From NCBI GenBank assembly GCA_964566505.1, contig CAZMIM010000001.1, forward strand, positions 199,690 to 263,689: 64,000 nucleotides of DNA. Direction: 5' to 3'. The notes beneath the pieces were generated by a model, which was not told the DNA's origin, did not search any database, and worked only from the letters and a program-made list of their open reading frames with translations. The DNA is from an uncultured Candidatus Saccharibacteria bacterium. Lineage in GTDB: Bacteria; Patescibacteriota; Minisyncoccia; Phycocordibacterales; PCTT01. Each line of letters opens with the position of its first letter. Position 1 is the stretch's first letter. Below, in pieces: positions 13,243-62,420 of this stretch. A program made the translations under genes and the position numbers.

Positions 13243-13749
13243 TTAATTTATATATTTTTTACTTACAGAATAAAAAACAAATATACCTAATATGGTAAAT
13301 ATTGATTCTATAACCCAAAGTATTGTAGTGCCTGTTATTAGTATTCCCAAAAATCCAAACGCGATAGAGAAGAGCCCAAATACGGCCATAATTGATGTAG
13401 ATACTGTTACAACTTTTTTAGCATTAGAGATATAATATCTTCCCATAATCCACTTTGCTGAGTAGATTACTCCACCCCAAATTATCAGCACTCCAATAAT
13501 TCCCATGAAAATACTTGCAAATAATGAAGATTGATTGAATATTTCCAATAGATTGAATATGTACCCCAAAAAAATTCCTGCAATAATAGGAACAACAAAC
13601 CCAGAAGTTAAAAAATGGGTAATTCCTACATACCAGCCTCTTGCTTGTTTTAATTCTTTCATATTATAAACGTTTTTATTTTTATAAACTTTTACAAACT
13701 TAAGTATAACAAAAATATCCCCCCAACGGGGGATATTTTCTTGAGCCAC
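13243..13749 (-). CDS. hypothetical integral membrane protein
   Basis: 168 aa, about 4 TM helices. Confidence 0.4.
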   Translation of the reverse strand: MAQENIPRWGDIFVILKFVKVYKNKNVYNMKELKQARGWYVGITHFLTSGFVVPIIAGIFLGYIFNLLEIFNQSSLFASIFMGIIGVLIIWGGVIYSAKWIMGRYYISNAKKVVTVSTSIMAVFGLFSIAFGFLGILITGTTILWVIESIFTILGIFVFYSVSKKYIN

Positions 13750-13817
13750 CGGTCGGGTTCGAACCGACGACCTGCCGATTACAAGTCGGCTGCTCTAGCC
13801 AACTGAGCTACGGTGGC
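13744..13817 (-). tRNA. tRNA-Thr (anticodon UGU)
   Basis: Cloverleaf GCCACCG/CGGUGGC acceptor, D-arm GCUCAGUUGGCUAGAGC, anticodon loop CUUGUAA, T-arm GUCGGUUCGAACCCGAC; CCA not encoded. Confidence 0.85.
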
Positions 13818-20534: not shown

Positions 20535-20586
20535 ACACAATATTATATCATTTGTAAAAAATGTTTCGTGATACAATTTAATGTAT

Positions 20587-20737
20587 GAATCCCGTAGTAT
20601 AAATTAGTTCGTTGAAGTAGTGTTAACTACTTCAACAGAGATTAATTAGATATACTTACGGGAAATGAGAGATAGACTTGGTTGTGTCGAAACCAACTTG
20701 TCTAATTAATCAAACTAATTTTTTACTACGGGATGAA
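20587..20737 (+). mobile_element. MITE-like repeat copy A (~151 bp, about 24-bp terminal inverted repeats ATCCCGTAGTA[T/A]AAATTAGTT)
   Basis: Near-identical to 22795-22946 (inverted) and 32463-32613. Internal hairpins gttgaagtagtgttaactacttcaac and ttggtttcgacacaaccaa. The terminus ...tactacgggATGAA supplies or abuts the pfkB-family start codon. Confidence 0.7.
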
Positions 20738-21728
20738 ATTCGACTTTGTATCAATCGGAGATATTGTTACAGACGCATTTATTGGTCTGCGCACAGACAA
20801 CACACAGGTCACATGTGATATCGATGGACGTCCATGCCAACTTTCAATAAATTTTGGTGACAAGCTTGAGTACAACACTCTTGATGTGATTCCAGCTGTG
20901 GGAAATAGCCCAAATGCATCGGTATCAGCACACCGACTTGGACTTTCATCTGCTCTCGTAACAAACATAGGAGATGATCGTTTTGGAAAAGAAGATTTAG
21001 AAGCACTCAAAAAAGAAGGTGTTTCCACAGATTTTGTAAAAGTTCATAAAGGACGACAGTCAAACTACCATTTCGTACTCCGGGTTGAGGCAGAAAGAAC
21101 CATTTTGGTAAAACACGAAGAATATACATATGAAATACCAAATTTTGATGAAGCACCTTCATGGATATATTTCTCATCAGTAGGAGAAAACTCAATTCCC
21201 TTTCATCACGAAATTGCTAAATACGTAACAGAAAATAATGTAAAGCTAGCGTTCCAACCTGGAACATTTCAAATAAAGCTTGGGTACGAAAAACTTAAAG
21301 ATGTTTATGGGGCTTCAGAACTATTTTTCTGTAACAAAGAAGAGGCTAAAAGAATCCTCAAAACAGACACAGATGACATGAAAGAAATACTAAAGGAAAT
21401 GCATGCACTAGGGCCATCTATAGCAATCATTACTGATGGTCCAAAGGGCGCATATGCATATGACGGAAAAGAGGGGTGGCACATGCCGATGTACCCAGAC
21501 CCAGCACCTCCTGTAGACAGAACTGGTGCCGGTGACTCTTTCTCATCTACTTTTACCTCAGCTTTGGCGCTTGGGCACGACATACCAACAGCTCTTTCAT
21601 GGGGGCCTATCAACTCTATGAGTGTAGTTCAACATGTTGGTGCACAAAAAGGACTTCTATCGCTTGAAGAGCTTAAAAAACACCTTGAAAACGCACCAGA
21701 AGATTACAAACCTGAGAAAATCATATGA
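20733..21728 (+). CDS. PfkB-family carbohydrate/nucleoside kinase (ribokinase-like)
   Basis: C-terminal DRTGAGDSFSSTF signature and N-terminal GG-like motif. Confidence 0.8.
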   Translation: MKFDFVSIGDIVTDAFIGLRTDNTQVTCDIDGRPCQLSINFGDKLEYNTLDVIPAVGNSPNASVSAHRLGLSSALVTNIGDDRFGKEDLEALKKEGVSTDFVKVHKGRQSNYHFVLRVEAERTILVKHEEYTYEIPNFDEAPSWIYFSSVGENSIPFHHEIAKYVTENNVKLAFQPGTFQIKLGYEKLKDVYGASELFFCNKEEAKRILKTDTDDMKEILKEMHALGPSIAIITDGPKGAYAYDGKEGWHMPMYPDPAPPVDRTGAGDSFSSTFTSALALGHDIPTALSWGPINSMSVVQHVGAQKGLLSLEELKKHLENAPEDYKPEKII

Positions 21729-22237
21729 TGAAAAAAGCAGAAAAACTCAGAAACCAAATATGTGAGACAGGGTTTACAAGTGTTCCAGAAAAAGAATACG
21801 GGCCACTATACAAAGAGCACCTATTGCGACAATATGATATTTATATAAAAACGCTCAATCACACCAGTGATGTAAAGCAAAAAGTAAATTCTTTCTTCCT
21901 TACACTCCACACTCTTCTCATCACTGCAATGGGTATTTCGTTTACCCAAGAAAATCCTTTTATTTCCAATGGTGGCCAGTTTGCACTTCCGTTAGTAGGA
22001 ATAATTATTTGTATTATTTGGTGGGCAATTGTGTACTCATACAAACAGAGAAGTATAGTTAAGACAACGGTTGTACAGTGTGTGGAAGATTATCTTCCAC
22101 TATCTCTCTACCAAGTGGAGTGGAAAATGCTAAAAAGCAGACATGGAGGATTTCGGTATCATTTCTTTAAAATAAGTCTCCTTATTCCTTGGGTGTTTAT
22201 TATTCTCTACGCCTTCATCCTTATCTTTTCAGTTTAA
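21725..22237 (+). CDS. hypothetical membrane protein (cytoplasmic N-domain plus 3-4 TM helices)
   Basis: 170-aa ORF overlapping the pfkB stop by 4 bp. Confidence 0.4.
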   Translation: MMKKAEKLRNQICETGFTSVPEKEYGPLYKEHLLRQYDIYIKTLNHTSDVKQKVNSFFLTLHTLLITAMGISFTQENPFISNGGQFALPLVGIIICIIWWAIVYSYKQRSIVKTTVVQCVEDYLPLSLYQVEWKMLKSRHGGFRYHFFKISLLIPWVFIILYAFILIFSV

Positions 22238-22799
22238 TAACCTCTTTATATCGAAAGCAGTCAACTGTGTGATCATTCACGAGCCCTGCCGCCTGCATGA
22301 ATGCGTATATAGTAGTAGAGCCCACAAACTTCATTCCTCTCTTCTTTAAATCTTTTGATAGAGCATCAGACTCTTTTGATGTAGTGGGTATATCTTTTTG
22401 TGTTTTACATTTGTTTATTTTTGGCGCACCTCCTACAAAACCCCAAATATAATCAGAAAAGCTTCCAAACTCTTTTTGTATTTCCTGAAACACTCGAGCG
22501 TTTGTAATTGCTCCTTCTATTTTTAATCTATTTCTAATAATTCCTGCATCTTTTAGAAGTTCTGTTTTCTTTTTCGCGTCATATTTTGCGATTTTTTTAT
22601 AGTTAAAATTATCAAACACTTTTTTAAAATTTGCTCGTTTGTGTAAAATTGTTCTCCACGAAAGACCAGCTTGGAATGTATCCAAGAGCATATATTCGAA
22701 TAGCTTCTTGTCGTCATAGCATGGCACACCCCACTCTGTATCGTGGTAGGCAATCATAAGCCCATCACTTTCCTGTGGCCAGATACATCTATTTTTCAT
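22221..22799 (-). CDS. tag: DNA-3-methyladenine glycosylase I
   Basis: YHDTEWGVP, LDTFQAGLSWRTIL and zinc-binding Cys/His pattern of Tag. Confidence 0.88.
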   Translation of the reverse strand: MKNRCIWPQESDGLMIAYHDTEWGVPCYDDKKLFEYMLLDTFQAGLSWRTILHKRANFKKVFDNFNYKKIAKYDAKKKTELLKDAGIIRNRLKIEGAITNARVFQEIQKEFGSFSDYIWGFVGGAPKINKCKTQKDIPTTSKESDALSKDLKKRGMKFVGSTTIYAFMQAAGLVNDHTVDCFRYKEVIKLKR

Positions 22800-22946
22800 C
22801 CCGTAGTAAAAAATTAGTTTGATTAATTAGACAAGTTGGTTTCGACACAACCAAGTCTATCTCTCATTTCCCGTAAGTATATCTAATTAATCTCTGTTGA
22901 AGTAGTTAACACTACTTCAACGAACTAATTTATACTACGGGATTCA
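22795..22946 (-). mobile_element. MITE-like repeat copy B (inverted relative to copy A)
   Basis: Reverse complement of copy A with a few substitutions; the terminus again abuts the tag start codon (tactacgggATGAAAAAT on the minus strand). Confidence 0.7.
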
Positions 22947-23020
22947 TAGGAATAATAATATCATCACTTTTATGATATATTGATTTTAGTTCGCACCTCT
23001 AACACAAAAAGGTATATTCA

Positions 23021-23224: not shown

Positions 23225-23242
23225 ACATGTGCCCAAAAACAC

Positions 23243-23272
23243 AACGGCTCAACTTTTTTAAGTTGAGCCGTT
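23243..23272. terminator. Rho-independent terminator (aacggctcaacttttttaagttgagccgtt)
   Basis: 12-bp perfect stem; same ACGGCTCA/TGAGCCGT stem family as 88-129 and 25226-25254. Confidence 0.6.
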
Positions 23273-23277
23273 TATCT

Positions 23278-24300
23278 TTATAACCCTTCTACTCGCCCGA
23301 GTTTGAAGCTTTCTGCGTGCGTAATGATTCTATTCATAAAAGAAACTGCCTCTACTGGATATTTACCAGATGCAGTTTCGTCAGATAGCATAACAGCACT
23401 TGAGCCGTCATATACTGCATTTGCAACATCTGAAACTTCTGCTCGTGTTGGTTCTGGGCTATTCACCATAGAAAGCATCATTTGTGTTGCCGTGATGGCG
23501 GGTGTGTCATGCCAGCGTCCATTTCTAATCATGTGCTTCTGAGTAAACGGAAGTTCCTCTACAGGTATTTCAACTCCCAAATCACCACGTGCAATCATGA
23601 TTGCGTCTGATCCTTGAATAATTCCATCCATATTATCCACAGAAAGCCTTGTCTCCATTTTTGCAATAACTTTTGCTTTACCTCCAATCATTTCTTTGAG
23701 CTCAAGAACATCTCCTTCATCTTGAACAAACGATATAGCAACAAAATCTACACCTTGAGATAACCCAAATAATACATCTTTTTTATCTTTTTCTGTTAGG
23801 CCAGATAGAGACAGTCGTGTGTCGGGTACGTTAACAGATTTACGTGAATACAAAACTCCGGCTTGAGTAACTCGAGCATAAATACGACTATCATCAACCT
23901 CTGTTACAACCAGCTTTATTGCTCCATTTGCAAGATATAGAGGTTGTTCAATCTTAATATCGCTCACCAGACTTTTGCTGTCTATAAATATTGCTTCTGT
24001 GTCATCTTGATTTATAGAAAATATAACATCCTGTCCATATGAAAGATGTACTCCTTCGTCAGATACTTTTCCCACACGAATACGGGGCCCTTGGAGATCC
24101 TGAAGAATCTTCACATTTAAGTTGTGTTTTTTGTTTATGTCTTCTATTTTTTCTTTACGAGCTAAAAACTCTTCTTCTGTACAATGTGAAAAGTTCATTC
24201 TTGCTATGTCCATCCCAGCAAGTGCAAGCTTTTCTAATGTTTCATATGATTCTGATGTTGGTCCAATAGTTGCTATTATCTTCGTTTTTCGTTTATGCAT
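23278..24300 (-). CDS. pyk: pyruvate kinase (catalytic domains only, no C-terminal regulatory domain)
   Basis: KTKIIATIGPTSES, MDIARMNFSH, MIARGDLGVEIP motifs; the ORF continues to 24426 but the start is probably MHKRK. Confidence 0.85.
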   Translation of the reverse strand: MHKRKTKIIATIGPTSESYETLEKLALAGMDIARMNFSHCTEEEFLARKEKIEDINKKHNLNVKILQDLQGPRIRVGKVSDEGVHLSYGQDVIFSINQDDTEAIFIDSKSLVSDIKIEQPLYLANGAIKLVVTEVDDSRIYARVTQAGVLYSRKSVNVPDTRLSLSGLTEKDKKDVLFGLSQGVDFVAISFVQDEGDVLELKEMIGGKAKVIAKMETRLSVDNMDGIIQGSDAIMIARGDLGVEIPVEELPFTQKHMIRNGRWHDTPAITATQMMLSMVNSPEPTRAEVSDVANAVYDGSSAVMLSDETASGKYPVEAVSFMNRIITHAESFKLGRVEGL

Positions 24301-25219: not shown

Positions 25220-25225
25220 ATAAAC

Positions 25226-25258
25226 AAACGGCTCATTTTGAAAATGAGCCGTTTATCT
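25226..25258. terminator. Rho-independent terminator (aaacggctcattttgaaaatgagccgttt), near-identical to the hairpin at 88-129
   Basis: Perfect 12-bp stem; one-base loop difference (c/g) from the first copy. Confidence 0.6.
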
Positions 25259-25473
25259 TATTCACCTATATATTCAAATCTCTTTGTTTGCTTTCCGTCT
25301 ATTTCTACCAACTCTTCAAACATCGCAATTGGTCGAACCCACAACTTAGACATATCATTGTCATATTGCGCTTCGTATACCACCAGGTCTTCAAGTGTTT
25401 CTGAGTGCTTTGCTACGCCCAACACTTTATACATCCTCCCTGATTTTGAGTGTTTATATAGTCCTGTTTTCAT
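25258..25473 (-). CDS. DUF1653 domain protein
   Basis: YKHSKSGRMYKVLGVAKHSETLEDLVVYEAQYDN...LWVRPIAMFEE matches the conserved DUF1653 pattern. Confidence 0.65.
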   Translation of the reverse strand: MKTGLYKHSKSGRMYKVLGVAKHSETLEDLVVYEAQYDNDMSKLWVRPIAMFEELVEIDGKQTKRFEYIGE

Positions 25474-31650: not shown

Positions 31651-32379
31651 ATGGAATATCCAATACGAATAAATAGATATCTTTATCTCAACAATATCTG
31701 CAGTCGACGACAAGCAGACCGTTTTATTGAACAAAAACTCGTATATATAAACGGTAAGCCCGCTGTACTAGGGCAACAAGTAGAAGAGGGTGACACTGTA
31801 GAGCTAAAAGGTAGGGCTCAAAAGCATGTATCAAACTATCAATATATTATTTACCACAAACCTCGTGGAGTTGTCAGCCACAACCCACAACGTGGAGAAA
31901 AAGCAGTGACAGACCTTGTAAAAAGTAAGCAAAAAGTAGACCCCATTGGGCGTCTAGACAAAGACTCTACAGGCCTGATGCTTCTCTCAAACGATGGACG
32001 ACTTGTAAACAAAATGCTTCACCCAGATTTTTCACATGAAAAAGAATATGTTGTGAGTGTAAACAAAGAGCTAAAACCAAGCTTCAAGAAAAAAATGGAA
32101 GGTGGGGTAAACATAGAAGGATATGTTACAAAGCCTGCACGCATTAAAATCACAGGAGATAAAACATTTAAAATAATTCTCACAGAAGGTAAAAAACACC
32201 AAATCCGAAGAATGTGCATGGCTCTTGGCTATACAGTAGTTACACTAAAACGCGTACGAATGATGGATATAAAACTTTCTAAACTAAAAGAAGGCGCACA
32301 GCGCCCACTTACAGAAAAAGAAAAGAGTATTCTATTTTCACAGCTTGGAATTACTGAGCAGCCAACACTGCAAAGTTAA
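31651..32379 (+). CDS. rsuA: rRNA pseudouridine synthase, RsuA/RluB family
   Basis: N-terminal S4 domain (RINRYLYLNNICSRRQADRFI), catalytic RLDKDSTGLMLLSNDG. Confidence 0.85.
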   Translation: MEYPIRINRYLYLNNICSRRQADRFIEQKLVYINGKPAVLGQQVEEGDTVELKGRAQKHVSNYQYIIYHKPRGVVSHNPQRGEKAVTDLVKSKQKVDPIGRLDKDSTGLMLLSNDGRLVNKMLHPDFSHEKEYVVSVNKELKPSFKKKMEGGVNIEGYVTKPARIKITGDKTFKIILTEGKKHQIRRMCMALGYTVVTLKRVRMMDIKLSKLKEGAQRPLTEKEKSILFSQLGITEQPTLQS

Positions 32380-32462
32380 GTAGTGTAATCACCATACTGA
32401 AAAATCCAGTAATAAAGGCGATTCTTGTTGCACGGTCCTTTAGCCATGTGTCCATAAAATTC

Positions 32463-32613
32463 TTCATCCTGTAGTAAAAAATTAGTTTGATTAATTAGAC
32501 AAGTTGGTTTCGACACAACCAAGTCTATGTATATCATTTCCCGTATGTCTAATTAATCTCTGTTGAAGTAGTTAGTACTACTTCAACGAACTAATTTATA
32601 CTACGGGATTCAT
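32463..32613 (-). mobile_element. MITE-like repeat copy C
   Basis: About 93% identical to copy B including both TIRs; overlaps the rsuA 3' end region; a 38-codon ORF (MKNFMDTWLK...) starts exactly at its terminus. Confidence 0.65.
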
Positions 32614-32660
32614 ATTTTAATTATACAATGTTCCAATCACCACAACCTATGTATTCCACA

Positions 32661-47173: not shown

Positions 47174-47503
47174 AGATTTTTTAATGACGAATAAATCTTA
47201 TGGCGGGTAACAAAAAGCCCGCCACCAAGTAGAGCCGAAGCTCATATCCCAAGTTTCCCTGGAATAGCTCAAGGAGAGACCCTTGATGACGGGTTCTTTA
47301 TTCTCCTTGAGACTTTTATATTCGGACCATACCGCCACAAACGTGTCGGGTTAGGTCGCTATATTGTGATGTCGAGCTCTTCGCTCAACATATACATAAT
47401 ATCGCTAAATAAAGGTGGTGTTAAGCAAGAAGCGAGTATGCGACGAATCACTGGTTCTGCATAGCTTAGCAAGACTAGTTTTCTCTGGCATTAATGGTTC
47501 CCT

Positions 47504-52183: not shown

Positions 52184-52257
52184 TGGCTGCCGGACAGGGA
52201 CTCGAACCCCGATTTCTTGGACCAAAACCAAGCGTCCTGCCATTAGACGATCCGGCA
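52184..52257 (-). tRNA. tRNA-Gln (anticodon UUG), U1-A72 pair, G73, CCA encoded
   Basis: UGCCGGA/UCCGGCA acceptor, anticodon stem CUUGG/CCAAG with loop UUUUGGU, T-arm CGGGGUUCGAGUCCCUG. Confidence 0.85.
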
Positions 52258-52316
52258 ATGTATTTAATTTTTATATATCTGCCAAATTTCAAGGTCCAAC
52301 TTGGACCGCAATACAA

Positions 52317-52349
52317 AATCTTGCAAGCATCCTACCATTAGACGATCCG
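52317..52349 (-). repeat. 30-bp direct duplicate (1 mismatch) of the tRNA-Gln 5' end plus 4-nt upstream flank; head of a degenerate pseudo-tRNA (about 52262-52349)
   Basis: cct[g/a]ccattagacgatccggcaatgtatt occurs at 52232-52264 and 52317-52349; the downstream part has lost the anticodon and T-arm pairing. Confidence 0.6.
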
Positions 52350-52419
52350 GCAATGTATTACCTAAAAACTGGCAATATACAAAACAGATTACCGTAGTAA
52401 TCTGCTTTGTGCAACGAAT

Positions 52420-53349
52420 TTATACCTTGAGATGCTTTCTGATTGCAAGGAAACTTGATAGTGCTCCTAGTAGTATTCCTGCCACAAGTAGTATCAAGAA
52501 CATTTGTCCAAAGTGATCAACATAATAGTCGAACACATTTGTAGCTCCGAAGAAGCTTTCTGTAAACGGCCCTAGCCAAATAGTTACTGGGTAGAAAATT
52601 ATTAGCGCAAATACCGCAGACACTACCCCATACATCATTCCCTCAAGAATAAATGGCCACCGTATATATGAGTTGCTAGCACCCACAAGCTTCATCACCG
52701 CAATCTCCTCACGCGCAGTGTATATAGCAAGCCTAATAGTGTTGAATACAATAGCAATCGAGATGATCACAAACATCACTAGTATCGCAAATGAAAGTGT
52801 GTCGATAGAGTTTATAAGTCGTGAGAGTTTGTCGATTGCCTCTTTGTTTTGGAAATAGTTTACCTTCTCAATAATCTGCGTGTTGCCTGCCCCGAGCGCG
52901 TTGTCTGACTCTAGGAAATTGGCGATACTCTCATACTGAGATGTTTCTTGTGCACGAATATTTAGGTGTGCACCAAGCGGGTTCTCATCAAGCTCATCAA
53001 GTGCTTGGATAATAAGCTGATCATTCTCGTGTCGGCGTGTGAATTCTTCTAACGCCTGCTCTCGTGATATATATTCTACAGATGAAGTCTCTGGAAGTTG
53101 TTCCAAGTCACCTTTAAGCGCCAATATTTCTGGCTCTGTTGCATCAAGTGTGAAATACACATTCACATCCACCTTTGATTGAAGCTGTCCGAGAGAAGAC
53201 TCGAGCATTGCGTCAAGGAAAATAAGAGACCCGAGCACAAAAAGTGTTACAGTCGTTACCAAAATACTTGCAGCAGTAATAAATGCGTTACGCCAAAAGC
53301 TTACAAACCCCGCTTTTATTACTCGTTTTGTTGAAGTCCAAAGATCCAT
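52420..53349 (-). CDS. ftsX: cell-division ABC transporter permease FtsX
   Basis: N-terminal TM, large periplasmic domain, 3 C-terminal TMs; downstream of ftsE. Confidence 0.82.
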   Translation of the reverse strand: MDLWTSTKRVIKAGFVSFWRNAFITAASILVTTVTLFVLGSLIFLDAMLESSLGQLQSKVDVNVYFTLDATEPEILALKGDLEQLPETSSVEYISREQALEEFTRRHENDQLIIQALDELDENPLGAHLNIRAQETSQYESIANFLESDNALGAGNTQIIEKVNYFQNKEAIDKLSRLINSIDTLSFAILVMFVIISIAIVFNTIRLAIYTAREEIAVMKLVGASNSYIRWPFILEGMMYGVVSAVFALIIFYPVTIWLGPFTESFFGATNVFDYYVDHFGQMFLILLVAGILLGALSSFLAIRKHLKV

Positions 53350-53351
53350 AA

Positions 53352-54077
53352 TTATATTTTATATTTACCGTGTTCGTCGTCGCTCACTATTTTACCATTC
53401 TCCATAGTAATAACTCGCTTTTTAAGTGAATCGATTACACCTTTGTTGTGAGTGGTGAGAATAACCGTTGTGCCAAGATCATTAATTTTTTTGAGAATCT
53501 GCACAATATCGTGAGTGTTAATAGGGTCAAGGTTTCCTGTAGGCTCATCTGCAATCACCAAATCAGGTTGGTTCACAATCGCTCGCGCGATAGCAAGCCG
53601 TTGCTTTTCTCCACCTGAGAGCTCTCCAGGGAAATTCCAAATCTTGTCTCCTAGGTCTACAAGGTCAAGTACATGAGGTACATCAGACTCAATATCTTCA
53701 TCGCTTCGCCCCGCCGCTTCCATAGCAAAAGCAATATTTTCAAACGCTGTCTTGTGAGGAAGAAGTCTAAAGTCCTGAAACACCATACCAATTCGGCGCC
53801 TATACAAGTTGAGCTCTTTTTTATCTAGGTCGTGTACTCTTATTCTATCGAAAAACACATCTCCTGAAGTTGGTCGCTCCTCTGCAAGAATCATTTTCAA
53901 AAGCGTACTCTTTCCTGCTCCTGAGTGCCCCACAATAGAAACAAACTCTTTTGGATATACATCCAAAGACACGCCATCGAGCGCATTTACTCCTCCTATG
54001 TATTCCTTCTTTACTTTATTGAAATGTAAAAGTGGCTCTTTTTTCTTCGAGTCACCCTCGTCTGTGTGGTGTGTCAT
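53352..54077 (-). CDS. ftsE: cell-division ABC transporter ATP-binding protein FtsE
   Basis: Walker [10 protein letters not shown], signature [14 protein letters not shown], Walker [12 protein letters not shown]. Confidence 0.9.
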
Positions 54078-54089
54078 GTGTGATTATTA

Positions 54090-54965
54090 TTACAATTCGC
54101 GTTCTGCTTCTATAAACGCTTCTATATCCCCATCTAGAACCGAGTCTACCGAGCGCACCTCTACATCAGTACGATGGTCTTTGACCATCTGATACGGATG
54201 AAAGACATACGAACGAATCTGTGACCCCCATTCATTTGCAGTATTTGCAGATACTGAGAGCCCTTTCTCTACCTTCTTTCTATCTTCTTCTCTCTTATGA
54301 TACAACTTACCCGAAAGTATTGAAAGTGCCTTTACACGATTTGCTTCCTGTGTTCTCTCGCTATCCGACTGAGCAGAAATTCCTGTTGGCGTATGCACAA
54401 TACGCACTGCTGTTTCGCGCTTGTTTACATTTTGCCCACCTGGACCACTAGATTTTGAAAATTCTATTTCTAGCTCGCTCTCATCGATTTCCACACTCTT
54501 CACATCTGGCAAACTTGGTACTACCTCCACCATTGCAAATGATGTATGCCTCTTTTTGTTTGAATCAAATGGAGAAATACGCACAAGCCGGTGTACACCC
54601 GACTCATTTTTAAGTGTTCCATATGAGCGTGAGCCAATCACTTCAAATGTAATATTTCTATATCCACCATGGTCTGTAGAATGCTCGTGAACCGTCATTT
54701 GTGTCCAACCTTTTGAAGAAATATATCCTGAATACATGTTGTACAAAATACGCACAAAATCTTCTGAATCTTGTCCGCCTGCGCCAGCAAAAATTGTTAT
54801 TACAGCATCTCCTTTGTCATATTTTCCAAGTCCTTCTTTTTCGTCTTTGAGCTCTTGGTACCTATTTATTACCTCCTGCGCAAAGCGTTTATCTTCCCAA
54901 AAATCAGGTGCAGACATTTGCCCCTCTATCTCCTGTATTTCTTTTTCGATTTGCTCTTTATCCAT
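54090..54965 (-). CDS. prfB: peptide chain release factor 2 (contiguous frame, no programmed +1 frameshift)
   Basis: SPF tripeptide (RISPFDSNKKRHTS) and GGQ (SGPGGQNVNK). The start is probably MDKEQ at 54965; the ORF extends to 55004 through a tandem-repeat leader. Confidence 0.85.
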   Translation of the reverse strand: MDKEQIEKEIQEIEGQMSAPDFWEDKRFAQEVINRYQELKDEKEGLGKYDKGDAVITIFAGAGGQDSEDFVRILYNMYSGYISSKGWTQMTVHEHSTDHGGYRNITFEVIGSRSYGTLKNESGVHRLVRISPFDSNKKRHTSFAMVEVVPSLPDVKSVEIDESELEIEFSKSSGPGGQNVNKRETAVRIVHTPTGISAQSDSERTQEANRVKALSILSGKLYHKREEDRKKVEKGLSVSANTANEWGSQIRSYVFHPYQMVKDHRTDVEVRSVDSVLDGDIEAFIEAEREL

Positions 54966-54968
54966 ATT

Positions 54969-55002
54969 GTTACGTAGCGTGTTACGTAGCATGCTACGTA
55001 AC
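54969..55002 (-). repeat. three tandem 12-nt repeats each containing the TACGTA palindrome, immediately upstream of (or translated into) the prfB N-terminus
   Basis: gttacgtagcgt / gttacgtagcat / gctacgtaacaa with 12-nt periodicity, 3 nt from the prfB ATG. Confidence 0.5.
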
Positions 55003-55021
55003 AAAACATCTGAGCCAATGG

Positions 55022-55095
55022 GCGGAATTGAACCGCCGGCCTCGCCCTTACCATGGGCGCGCTCTGACCGACTGAGCTACATTGGCTAGTGAACA
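55022..55095 (-). tRNA. tRNA-Thr (anticodon GGU)
   Basis: GCCAAUG/CAUUGGC acceptor, D-arm GCUCAGUCGGUCAGAGC, anticodon stem CGCCC/GGGCG with loop AUGGUAA, T-arm GGCGGUUCAAUUCCGCC. Confidence 0.85.
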
Positions 55096-55175
55096 AATCC
55101 TATTATACATTGATTGGGTTTTCAATATTATGCTACAATCCTTCAGGGTAAAATTGTTCATAAACCAAAAAATAA

Positions 55176-55385
55176 ATGAACCGTTCAGACATTCGGCCAA
55201 ACCAAGTACTTCTGTTTTTGGATGAAAATGGAGAACCCACAGGAGAGCGCGGACAAGCAATTCCTAAAGACTCAAGATATGAACTTGAAAAAGCATATTC
55301 TGAGTTTGTGGTAAATGTGCTTCTTCTTCCTGAGAAGACCACCCGCGACACATGGCCTGTAAATAGAGTCAAGGGGGCCATTTAA
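55176..55385 (+). CDS. hypothetical small protein
   Basis: 69-aa ORF between tRNAs; no domain recognised. Confidence 0.25.
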   Translation: MNRSDIRPNQVLLFLDENGEPTGERGQAIPKDSRYELEKAYSEFVVNVLLLPEKTTRDTWPVNRVKGAI

Positions 55386-55475
55386 TAGCCCTGACTATCC
55401 CAAACCCCAGCACAATCGTGCTGGGGTTTCCAATACAAAATACCGCACCTTACGGCACGGTATTTTGTATGATTG

Positions 55476-55546
55476 TTGCGGGGCCGGGAATTGCACCCGG
55501 GTCTGGAGGTTATGAGCCTCCCGAGATACTACTTCTCCACCCCGCT
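55476..55546 (-). tRNA. tRNA-Met (anticodon CAU), initiator-like (1:72 mismatch, short variable loop)
   Basis: AGCGGGG acceptor with A1 opposite A72 (mismatch as in bacterial initiators), D-stem GAGA/UCUC, anticodon stem GGAGG/CCUCC with loop CUCAUAA, T-stem CCGGG/CCCGG with unusual T-loop UGCAAUU. Confidence 0.7.
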
Positions 55547-55827
55547 ATAATTAGCTTAGAAGAATAAGCGTGTAGAGAGCATAATACTATATTTTTTATA
55601 TTCTGACAAACAAAAAACTCGCCTCCCCCAGCCCGACACACCCACTGGGAGTCGATAGGGAGACGAGTTTTGGCCATAGAGACACCTGTATCCAATTGCG
55701 TACTCGCGATTGCTCATGTCGCGAACAAAAGGAACGTCACCACGGTCAAAGCCATTGTATATACACTAATATATTCGTCAATCTTTTATTGAAAAAAAGG
55801 CTTAAATATACTATGCTATCGAGTATT

Positions 55828-55901
55828 GTCGGGGTAGCTCAGTTGGTTAGAGCGTAGGACTCATAAACCTAAGGTCGGCGGTTCAATTCCGCCCCCCGGC
55901 A
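55828..55901 (+). tRNA. tRNA with CAU anticodon (elongator Met or lysidine-modified Ile2)
   Basis: GUCGGGG/CCCCGGC acceptor, D-arm GCUCAGUUGGUUAGAGC, anticodon loop CUCAUAA, T-arm GGCGGUUCAAUUCCGCC. Confidence 0.8.
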
Positions 55902-55946
55902 CTAGGCGTGATTTTTATTTACTTTTGTAATATAATCATCACGCAC

Positions 55947-55995
55947 ATGCAGCGGTAGCTCCAGAATATTAGATAGAGGTTAGAGCACAAGTGCT
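55947..55995 (+). pseudogene. truncated/disrupted duplicate of the tRNA-Asp 5' half
   Basis: cacatgcagcggtagctc (18 nt) and ggttagagcac repeated from the intact tRNA-Asp 90 bp downstream; the D-loop is interrupted and there is no anticodon or T-arm. Confidence 0.4.
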
Positions 55996-56036
55996 CCTAA
56001 AAAAACTATCTCATATTTTGGAGTTATCCTGCACAT

Positions 56037-56111
56037 GCAGCGGTAGCTCAATTTGGTTAGAGCACCCGCCTGTCACGCGGGAGGTTGCGGGTTCAAGTCC
56101 CGTCCGTTGCG
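56037..56111 (+). tRNA. tRNA-Asp (anticodon GUC)
   Basis: GCAGCGG/CCGUUGC acceptor, D-arm GCUCAAUUUGGUUAGAGC, anticodon stem CCCGC/GCGGG with loop CUGUCAC, T-arm GCGGGUUCAAGUCCCGU. Confidence 0.85.
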
Positions 56112-61544: not shown

Positions 61545-62195
61545 TTATTTTATTGAGCTTTTAAGTGATTGTAGTTCTAAATCTTGTGGAAGCTCCTTGA
61601 TTCCAAGGTTTACAAAATCGCGTGCTTTCTTTGTATCTTTTAATACATGTTGGAAAAACTCCACAGCCTTGAAATATGTTGGGAGATATTTAGGCGCAAT
61701 CTGTTGAGCTTTATTGTAATACTCTTCTGCCTTTGTATAATCTCGCAAGTCATATGCATAAAGATCCGCCAAGTTAGCCGCTACAATAGCATTGCCAGGC
61801 TCTATGGCAAGTACGTACAACCACACTTCCTCTGCATCAGAATATGCTCCTGCATTCTTCCAATATATACCAATGTCAATCCATGCATCTGTGTTATATA
61901 TGTTTTCTTTTGCCATATTTATAACAAATTGAAGAAAATCCTTTGACTGCTTTGAAAGCTTTGATATATCGATGTTTCTGTCTAACGATGGAGCTTCAAC
62001 GCCTGAATCAGTATCCACAATAGGCACAACCTCAATAGTTTCCTCTATGTTTAGAATACCGTCTGCTACATCTTCTGTATCTTCTGTTGGGCTTTTATCT
62101 ATATCACCATCTAATGTATTCATCTGATATACAGCCCCTGCAATAATAAGAGCAAGAATAACTGCCAATATAATTATTATGTATCTATATTTCAT
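61545..62195 (-). CDS. membrane-anchored tetratricopeptide-repeat protein
   Basis: N-terminal TM; TPR-like helical repeats (AEEYYNKAQQIAPKY...). Confidence 0.6.
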   Translation of the reverse strand: MKYRYIIIILAVILALIIAGAVYQMNTLDGDIDKSPTEDTEDVADGILNIEETIEVVPIVDTDSGVEAPSLDRNIDISKLSKQSKDFLQFVINMAKENIYNTDAWIDIGIYWKNAGAYSDAEEVWLYVLAIEPGNAIVAANLADLYAYDLRDYTKAEEYYNKAQQIAPKYLPTYFKAVEFFQHVLKDTKKARDFVNLGIKELPQDLELQSLKSSIK

Positions 62196-62420
62196 CCCGT
62201 TAGTAATTATTTATTATAATCTTTTTTTTCATTTGGCGTATCTTTCTAACAATACGTAATTCATTATATCCCGTTATTTTATTGAATTACTAACGGGACG
62301 AATGATACGGCCATTATATCAACATTTCCCTCTTTGATAAGCATCCTATCAGTTTGGGAGAGTCAGACTCTCCCAAACTTAAATAAACTCGGGTACACCC
62401 TGAATAAACTCGGGTACACA

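Follow-up and report, generated by a model that had tools for sequence, protein, structure and literature searches.

The 64,000-nucleotide stretch analysed here (the window; positions 199,690 to 263,689 of contig CAZMIM010000001.1 from an uncultured Candidatus Saccharibacteria bacterium) contained three copies of a 143-bp element resembling a miniature inverted-repeat transposable element (MITE). These repeats are likely to be non-autonomous copies of a GIY-YIG mobile-element family of Patescibacteria, inserted at position +5 of leaderless genes. We propose more tentatively, at slightly less than even odds, that Patescibacteria carry a class of mobile element, about 315 bp long and previously undescribed, with inverted ends, a three-way-junction fold, a Slx1-like GIY-YIG nuclease as its sole gene, a 4-5 bp duplication and a preference for ATGNN gene starts, which would ride on host promoters and spawn miniature copies. 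In the full-text collection searched, neither GIY-YIG elements bounded by inverted ends nor MITEs of Patescibacteria were described.

Copy A (20590-20732, + strand; delimited by repeat finding, alignment and folds) and copy B (22800-22942, - strand) had the same sequence in opposite orientations, and copy C (32468-32608, - strand) was about 92% identical to both. They were found within 2-3 bases of the places given in the initial annotation, which had reported three copies with more than 90% identity. Copies A and B, spaced 2,055 bp apart, were 100% identical across 154 bp (TATGAAT...GGGATGAA), including five flanking bases on each side. The proximal end of copy C was CCTGTAGTA, with CCCGTAGTA in its place in A and B. 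In the alignment, the similarity between the copies broke off abruptly at the ATGAA on either side, beyond which the flanks were unrelated; the layout was ATGAA-T-CCCGTAGTA...TACTACGGG-ATGAA. Each copy was bracketed by the 5-bp direct repeat ATGAA, a target-site duplication of the host start codon and two further bases, with a length of 5 bp (ATGAA), or 4 bp (TGAA) if the outer T/A was counted within the element ends. The distal half of the duplication of copy A (20585-20589, + strand) opened a mini open reading frame (ORF), ATG AAT CCC GTA GTA TAA, and the proximal half (20733-20737, + strand) was the start codon of a pfkB-family kinase gene. The proximal halves of copy B (22795-22799, - strand) and copy C (32463-32467, - strand) formed the starts of tag and of a 38-codon ORF, respectively, and the corresponding distal halves were at 22943-22947 and 32609-32613 (both - strand). 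The only ORF in the 143-bp copies was the 5-codon read-in from the flanking ATG (MNPVV*). With their small size, non-coding sequence, inverted ends and flanking target-site duplication, the copies had the features of a MITE, and the copy count was three within 12 kb of the window. The MITE-like class assigned at first stood, the element being a short non-coding multi-copy insert with inverted ends and duplication. The initial annotation had also seen that the ATG-proximal end abuts an ATGAA start codon in all three copies, which was borne out, with the pfkB and tag starts backed by Pfam and N-terminal alignment; the TA duplication that it had considered gave way to ATGAA, whose distal side it had not noticed. 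The identity of A and B, set against the 8% divergence of C, suggests that the two were inserted very recently or that gene conversion has acted between them, and recombination between these two copies would exchange the promoters of the pfkB-family gene and tag.

The ends TCCyGTAGTr...yACTACrGG were common to the window copies and to elements in other Patescibacteria genomes, of which the full-length form was about 308-318 bp and carried a single gene for an 85-92 aa GIY-YIG nuclease. The end pair that a GIY-YIG element matching the 143-bp element would carry is TCCCGTAGTA...TACTACGGG. A first pattern, TCCCGTAGTAN{3,6}TTAGTT, gave at least 114 stretches in genome contigs, mostly single chance matches, and only the two loci of UBA12445 were relevant; a stricter pattern run on metagenomes gave three true matches, all from a UBA12445-like genome, and seven chance matches. 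A pattern match that recurred in several Bacteroidota-type genomes was set aside as a coding motif by its appearance (YPVVGVSW). Among viral contigs, the pattern matches were chance only and a GIY-YIG family search yielded one distant locus; the element is not phage-borne.

The UBA12445 / GW2011_GWF2_38_76 genome contained three loci (L032, L035 and L160; metagenome duplicates L162 and L167), which made up a decay series from gene-bearing to miniature forms. L032 was intact, with a length of 317 bp and the structure ATGAG-TCCTGTAGTG..GATT-ATG (85-aa GIY-YIG ORF)..stop..AAACTAAAATTCTACTACGGG-ATGAG, followed by engB. In L160 the same ends enclosed a decayed GIY-YIG pseudogene (50% identity, internal stop), and L035 was a 221-bp copy with the L032 ends and no ORF. 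The flanks of seven further intact genes were read at unrelated loci in other genomes. L176 and L187 had canonical ends with ATGGA on both sides, L192 had ATGA on both sides at the ftsE start, and L194 had TACG on both sides and was located five codons before the stop of an RNase Y gene. The ends of the remaining three were related to the canonical ones: L186 had only an offset ATG and no adjacent gene, L198 had no duplication, and L169, with diverged ends, had a 9-nt duplication within a prepilin leader. The intact elements were all co-oriented with the next gene, and insertion was exactly at the gene start, with the ATG within the duplication, at 9 of about 13 independent sites. The duplications were ATGAA (five sites), ATGAG, ATGGA (two sites), ATGA and TACG. 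Since the duplication, where present, matched the local host sequence (codon 2 at gene starts), it was made on insertion and was not part of the element sequence. In the full elements the GIY-YIG stop was 14-30 nt before the host ATG, and the read-in ORF stopped within or shortly after the 5' end in most of them, or a few nucleotides before the GIY-YIG ATG in some. No transposase gene was seen beside any element examined.

Two of these insertions showed local details of their own. In L194 (9965-10000 and 10268-10300; also in L195-L197), the end GCC CGG TAG re-encoded the Ala-Arg-stop of the displaced GCA AGA TAA. In L169 (2940-3320; also in L170-L175), the ends were CCCAGTAGT and the 9-nt duplication was TGGGTTTAC; a new start codon in the 3' end of the GIY-YIG ORF gave a replacement leader, MRAEKFKNQKFTT|GFTLVEV, which resembled the displaced MKNKHEQKFTK.

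An empty site was found for one of the full-length elements. The glycerate-kinase/phosphoenolpyruvate-synthase junction was occupied in L176 (...TAAaagaatATGGA-T[318-bp element]ATGGAcaac), and the orthologous junction of an 83% identical relative (L199) read ...TAAtattATGGAtaaagc, with a single ATGGA and no element. The pfkB and tag loci of relatives, at only about 71% protein identity, also lacked the element in the empty-site comparison that had been suggested for these loci. One such relative, L191, had the same gene order as the window, FBA(-) .. pfkB(+) .. tag(-), with a TAAAAT box 7 nt before the ATG of its pfkB gene. The tag start was ATGAAAAAGAGATGT in L191 and ATGAAAAATAGATGT in the window. 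Because tag of L191 begins at the equivalent start with no element, the ATG belongs to the host gene; the idea that the element donates the start codon was thus abandoned, as the ATG is the host's own, duplicated on insertion, and the duplicated 5-mer follows host codon 2. Likewise, the element-free L191 had these genes in the same order, which indicated that the stretch from copy A to copy B keeps an ancestral arrangement and is not transposon cargo. The initial annotation had raised the possibility that this segment was mobilised or inverted by its flanking copies, and a composite transposon or invertible cassette was rejected on the gene order, although the identical copies A and B could, physically, recombine and invert what lies between them.

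The window copies and the full elements also had a fold in common. The inverted ends of the window copies, about 21 bp long, paired as 11 bp, a 1x2 internal loop and 9 bp to form a closing stem, which matched the inverted ends described at first (ATCCCGTAGTA[T/A]AAA(AA)TTAGTT). In copy A (all on the + strand), the 5' inverted end (20590-20609) was followed by an 11-bp hairpin, H2 (20611-20636), then by the arms of a third inverted repeat, H3 (20640-20652, GATTAATTAGATA, with 20699-20711, TGTCTAATTAATC), which enclosed an inner 6-bp hairpin (20678-20696), and finally by the 3' inverted end (20712-20732). The two internal hairpins of the initial annotation were therefore real, and the third inverted repeat had gone unmentioned there. 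The element was far more stable than shuffled sequence, with z = -7.7 for the + strand and -7.5 for the - strand as RNA and z = -10 as DNA, and in the folded element the A and U of the host AUG were paired at the base of the stem. Rfam 15 gave no match at the gathering score, and a permissive search (E up to 10) gave only chance-level matches (E 1.7-9.5). A sequence inside the element, ATACTTACGGGAAATG (20654-20669, with equivalent sites in B and C), resembled a degenerate extra 3' end (TACTACGGG-ATG), and two smaller units, fused or nested, may make up the 143 bp.

The fold was conserved in the GIY-YIG elements, eight intact copies of which shared three helices in RNAalifold. H1 was formed by the element ends, which paired with each other over 19 pairs. 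In H2, GATTATGTTCTA, which holds the GIY-YIG start codon, paired with TAGAACATAATC (the EHNQ codons), and in H3, TTAAATCTTTC (the LNLST codons) paired with GAAAGATTTAA at the end of the ORF. Across the eight elements, 95.8% of the cells were paired, compared with 34-46% when the partners were slid, and 11 pairs covaried with changes on both sides, compared with 1-2 in the slid controls; none of 500 shuffles matched the observed values. The covariation was mostly in H1 (8 of its 19 pairs), where both arms of a given element carried their own variant of the inner segment, e.g. TTTTAG, TTTCAG, TTTTAT or AATTCAAAT. The order of the helices was the same in the window copy and in the full elements, with linkers of 1, 3 and 1 nt and of 1, 3 and 2 nt, respectively, and the internal sequence was unrelated. 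After the shared ends, this parallel in helix topology was the strongest argument for the probable family membership of the window copies and for a functional fold. A strand test based on G-U and A-C mismatches in the end stem was discarded, since the mismatched positions flipped between elements and did not separate RNA from DNA pairing.

The nuclease encoded by the full elements had more than 764 close homologues of 85-104 aa with 67-82% identity, and the few named ones were from Patescibacteria. A profile of 14 family members searched against PDB matched the UPF0213 proteins BH0048 (1zg2, E 6.9e-6) and EF2693 (1ywl, E 2.2e-5), followed by SLX1 (7wme, E 5e-3). In Foldseek, the AlphaFold model (pLDDT 89.9) was closest to 1zg2 and Slx1 (TMq 0.68-0.72, 25-28% identity) and farther from the catalytic domain of I-TevI (TMq 0.51, 15% identity). 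The protein consisted of a single minimal domain; it lacked a DNA-binding domain, and its C-terminal part had no conserved Asn (no invariant Asn after the RRE motif). Our results place the element protein in the Slx1/UPF0213 branch of the GIY-YIG nucleases. Some database gene calls (P0118, P0082 and P0012) read through the inverted ends, giving N-terminal ..CPVVKIQMI and C-terminal ..NSTTG, and starts and stops called automatically in the vicinity of such elements are thus unreliable.

The genes behind the window copies were functionally unrelated to one another. The pfkB-family kinase gene (20733-21728, + strand) had a Pfam PfkB match, and its N-terminus MKFDFVSIGD aligned with homologues beginning M..KLDFVA(I/V)GD; its protein was identical to one (P0121) on a 283-kb NCBI contig, and the closest relatives, at about 71% identity or less, included Campbellbacteria- and Paceibacteria-type metagenome-assembled genomes. 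The tag gene (22221-22799, - strand) encoded 3-methyladenine DNA glycosylase I (Pfam Adenine_glyco, E 1e-79) with the N-terminus MKNRCIWP, compared with MKKRCSWP in L191. The 38-codon ORF (32351-32467, - strand; MKNFMDTWLKDRATRIAFITGFFSMVITLLNFAVLAAQ), which started at the proximal ATGAA of copy C, had no clear homologue in a profile search of 1.84 billion representative proteins, with a single weak match (E 1.6e-6) to a 323-aa protein, and is a putative gene.

A TATAAT-like box was present 5-9 nt ahead of the ATG in 15 of 53 window ORFs, and a Shine-Dalgarno-like 4-mer in only 2 of the 53. To judge from these counts, leaderless, Shine-Dalgarno-free transcripts seem to be the rule for the first genes of operons in the source genome. 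Every copy had a -10-like box 6-7 nt upstream of its distal ATGAA: TACAAT (20572-20577, + strand) 7 nt before that of copy A, the presumed promoter of the formerly leaderless pfkB-family gene; TATTAT (22955-22960, - strand) with a 7-nt spacer at copy B; and TATAAT (32620-32625, - strand) with a 6-nt spacer at copy C, the latter two being putative promoters. Because this spacing fits the window-wide pattern, we infer that the boxes act as promoters. This arrangement is read most simply as three insertions into leaderless genes, each just past base +5 and with duplication of ATGAA. The only -10-like hexamer near the proximal end was TAATTT, 11 nt before the ATG, which was weak beside the near-consensus TATAAT boxes of the genome. 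In a consensus promoter scan, neither copy A nor the proximal arm of copy B contained a promoter-like match; a weak one (9/12), facing outward, overlapped the distal end of copy B. Donation of a promoter by the element, as the initial annotation had suggested, had no support from these sequences.

In the mechanism that we propose, the element would enter DNA with a 4-5 bp duplication, mostly just downstream of a gene's initial five bases (ATGNN) and in the orientation of that gene. The host promoter and the first ATG would then be ahead of the element, and the second ATGNN at its far end would restore the host reading frame. As the genome is mostly leaderless and free of Shine-Dalgarno sequences, the pfkB-family gene, tag and the small ORF of the window would each carry its insertion at about +5 of its transcript. 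The fold, as single-stranded DNA or as a cruciform, would be recognised by the Slx1-like nuclease, which would mobilise full and miniature copies in trans. In place of the transposase that had been expected as the autonomous partner, the likely partner is the minimal GIY-YIG nuclease gene. The preference for ATGNN could reflect targeting, or selection in a gene-dense genome, with the element gaining a promoter and the gene surviving.

The host genes would stay expressed in this mechanism, and several routes are conceivable. Translation of the mini-ORF MNPVV* might open the 5' arm of H1 and so free the host AUG, of which the A and U are held in the stem; other options are processing of the stem at the RNA level or use of the weak promoter at the 3' end (TAATTT, 11 nt before the ATG). 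The second of these, which is compatible with membership in the GIY-YIG family, holds that the stem is cut out or opened in the RNA (e.g. by RNase III, as in rRNA intervening sequences) to give a translatable mRNA. We regard it as possible but doubtful. A stem of about 21 bp would close the element in the sense RNA, and GIY-YIG ORFs have been reported in rRNA genes of the candidate phyla radiation (CPR), within insertions that belong to neither the group I nor the group II introns (PMC11270868). The same paper suggests that, at the 23S sites 23IS2 and 23IS4, many of the short non-intron insertions are probably intervening sequences cleaved by RNase III (PMC11270868). However, cleavage by RNase III within the stem would fail to produce an mRNA with a 5'-terminal AUG.

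Several observations weigh against placing the window copies in the GIY-YIG family or against parts of the mechanism. The similarity of the copies to the GIY-YIG elements was confined to about 25-33 nt per end (about 85-88% identity), with unrelated interiors; no GIY-YIG gene was found within the 64-kb window, so that any autonomous partner in the source genome is hypothetical, and tblastn and short-word blastn gave no GIY-YIG remnant in the copies. The irregular members L198, L186 and L169 break the simple duplication rule, and the sample comprised only about 13 independent insertion sites. The covariation in H1 is also expected if one protein bound both ends, and pairing is not proven by it. 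The mechanism by which the host genes are expressed is pure inference. We know of no GIY-YIG nuclease that acts as a transposase; to our knowledge, the domain occurs in homing endonucleases, UvrC, Slx1 and Penelope retroelements, and not in a bacterial element with inverted ends and target duplication. Finally, the Slx1-like branch has been regarded as non-selfish: the 2006 survey of the superfamily described prokaryotic Slx1-like proteins as vertically inherited and traced the origin of selfish GIY-YIG enzymes to the branch of UvrC (PMC1564403).

The first two of these observations, the short shared ends around an unrelated interior and the window free of GIY-YIG genes, would also be expected if the copies were ordinary MITEs of a conventional DDE-type insertion sequence and their ends resembled those of the GIY-YIG elements by coincidence or convergence. 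Inverted ends and a 4-5 bp duplication are, moreover, classic signatures of a transposase. However, several independent features agree at once with the GIY-YIG elements: the ends are alike in sequence, ATGAA is duplicated, the insertion falls on a start codon, its orientation follows the host gene, and the three-helix topology has matching linker lengths. Intact, decayed and ORF-less forms with the same ends occurred together in one other genome, and no transposase gene was seen next to the examined elements. We consider this explanation improbable.

A second alternative is that the repeats act mainly as cis-acting RNA, i.e. as a structured 5' leader, a regulatory RNA or a small RNA gene, and are not mobile insertions. 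The very stable fold (z = -7.7), the constant position between a promoter-like box and a start codon in the orientation of the gene, and the pairing of the A and U of the host AUG at the stem base would suit such a function. On the other hand, the opposite strand folded equally well (z = -7.5), Rfam gave no match even at E up to 10, the three downstream genes had unrelated functions, and the copies were 92-100% identical, yet the orthologous pfkB and tag loci of relatives had no such leader. The flanking direct repeat and the homology of the ends to those that bound a protein-coding element also spoke against it, leaving this alternative very unlikely. That an intergenic segment was duplicated locally or copied by gene conversion, with no transposition, is the least credible explanation and already largely refuted; local duplication had been named at the outset as a result that would overturn the MITE reading. 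All the copies were within 12 kb, and A and B, identical and 2 kb apart, could be maintained by gene conversion, but the similarity stopped sharply at ATGAA on both sides, the flanks were unrelated, and elements with the same ends were dispersed at unrelated loci elsewhere, one of them with an orthologous empty site.

Membership of the window copies in the GIY-YIG family was also compared with known systems. Correia/NEMIS elements of Neisseria, with which the initial annotation had drawn a parallel, are similarly short (about 100-300 bp), non-coding and multi-copy, with inverted ends, a TA target duplication, locations near gene starts and hairpins in transcripts; this comparison was made by description rather than against a reference sequence. 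The window element differed in its ATGAA duplication, its position on the start codon itself, its co-orientation and its likely GIY-YIG parent, and there was no evidence that it donates promoters as Correia/NEMIS elements do.

Free-standing GIY-YIG homing endonuclease genes (T4 seg, I-TevI-type) are likewise small selfish units with a sole GIY-YIG gene, located between host genes or at their edges and co-transcribed with them. In contrast, the element protein was a bare catalytic domain of 85-92 aa with no DNA-binding domain, nearer to Slx1/UPF0213 than to I-TevI, and the GIY-YIG elements had inverted ends and site-specific flanking duplications at many unrelated loci, features that are absent in homing endonuclease genes. 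Such genes have been contrasted with transposases (PMC1564403). The stand-alone Slx1-like/UPF0213 proteins (BH0048 and EF2693) were the best match in sequence and structure, with the same minimal domain and no conserved C-terminal Asn. That family was described as vertically inherited, non-selfish and probably related to repair (PMC1564403), whereas the GIY-YIG gene studied here was inside a bounded, duplicated element with presence/absence variation.

Folded hairpins of single-stranded DNA are a hallmark of the IS200/IS605 elements and of PATEs, their miniature derivatives, which keep the folds and lose the gene. IS200/IS605 elements have an HUH tyrosine transposase, no inverted ends and no target duplication; the window element, unlike them, had both inverted ends and a duplication (4-5 bp), with no sign of a tnpA gene. 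The rRNA insertions of the CPR resemble the elements in coming from the same bacterial group, in being tolerated in essential transcripts, in some GIY-YIG ORFs and in a long closing stem that is an RNase III substrate (PMC11270868). The window copies differed in being located in the leaders of protein genes and not in rRNA. The GIY-YIG insertions in CPR rRNA may be related to the element family.

If the link to the GIY-YIG elements holds, a minimal GIY-YIG nuclease would drive a transposon-like element to which the window copies belong, and its engine would be a structure-specific enzyme of a branch so far regarded as non-selfish. This would explain the abundance of small GIY-YIG genes in CPR genomes. 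It would also show how a selfish element survives in a tiny, gene-dense genome, by duplicating a leaderless start codon, borrowing the host promoter and sparing the gene. In annotation, errors are easily made at gene starts beside these repeats and at GIY-YIG ORFs reading through the ends. For studies of expression, the copies offer natural test cases of a leaderless mRNA in which a 150-nt hairpin separates the 5' end from the true start codon.

A possible divergent relative of the element was present at 62196-62299 (- strand), with 104 bp between the inverted CCCGTTAGTAATT...AATTACTAACGGG and a proximal end that abutted the ATGAA start of the gene at 61545-62195. Its end motif was similar to CCCGTAGTAA of the MITE with one additional T, and it contained an internal CCCGTTA/TAACGGG hairpin (62270-62297) and two TATAAT boxes. 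No flanking duplication was visible in this region, and past the end motif there was no significant similarity to copy A, so its membership of the family is uncertain.

Other features of the window were less closely connected with the copies. A LOOT RNA (RF03000) was detected at 47231-47357 (- strand; 51.8 bits, gathering score 46.4); we take this motif to be typical of the OD1, OP11 and TM7 lineages, which is consistent with a CPR origin of the window. A family of terminator-like hairpins, AAACGGCTCA..TGAGCCGTTT followed by T-rich sequence, was repeated at 91-135, 23241-23285 and 25222-25266, and at least the copy at 23243-23272, located between convergent genes, was a bidirectional terminator by score. 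Five tRNA genes were clustered in 4 kb (52187-56111), at 52187-52257, 55013-55086, 55476-55546, 55828-55901 and 56037-56111, and the inverted-repeat pair 13740-13811 / 55834-55905 corresponded to two similar tRNA genes.

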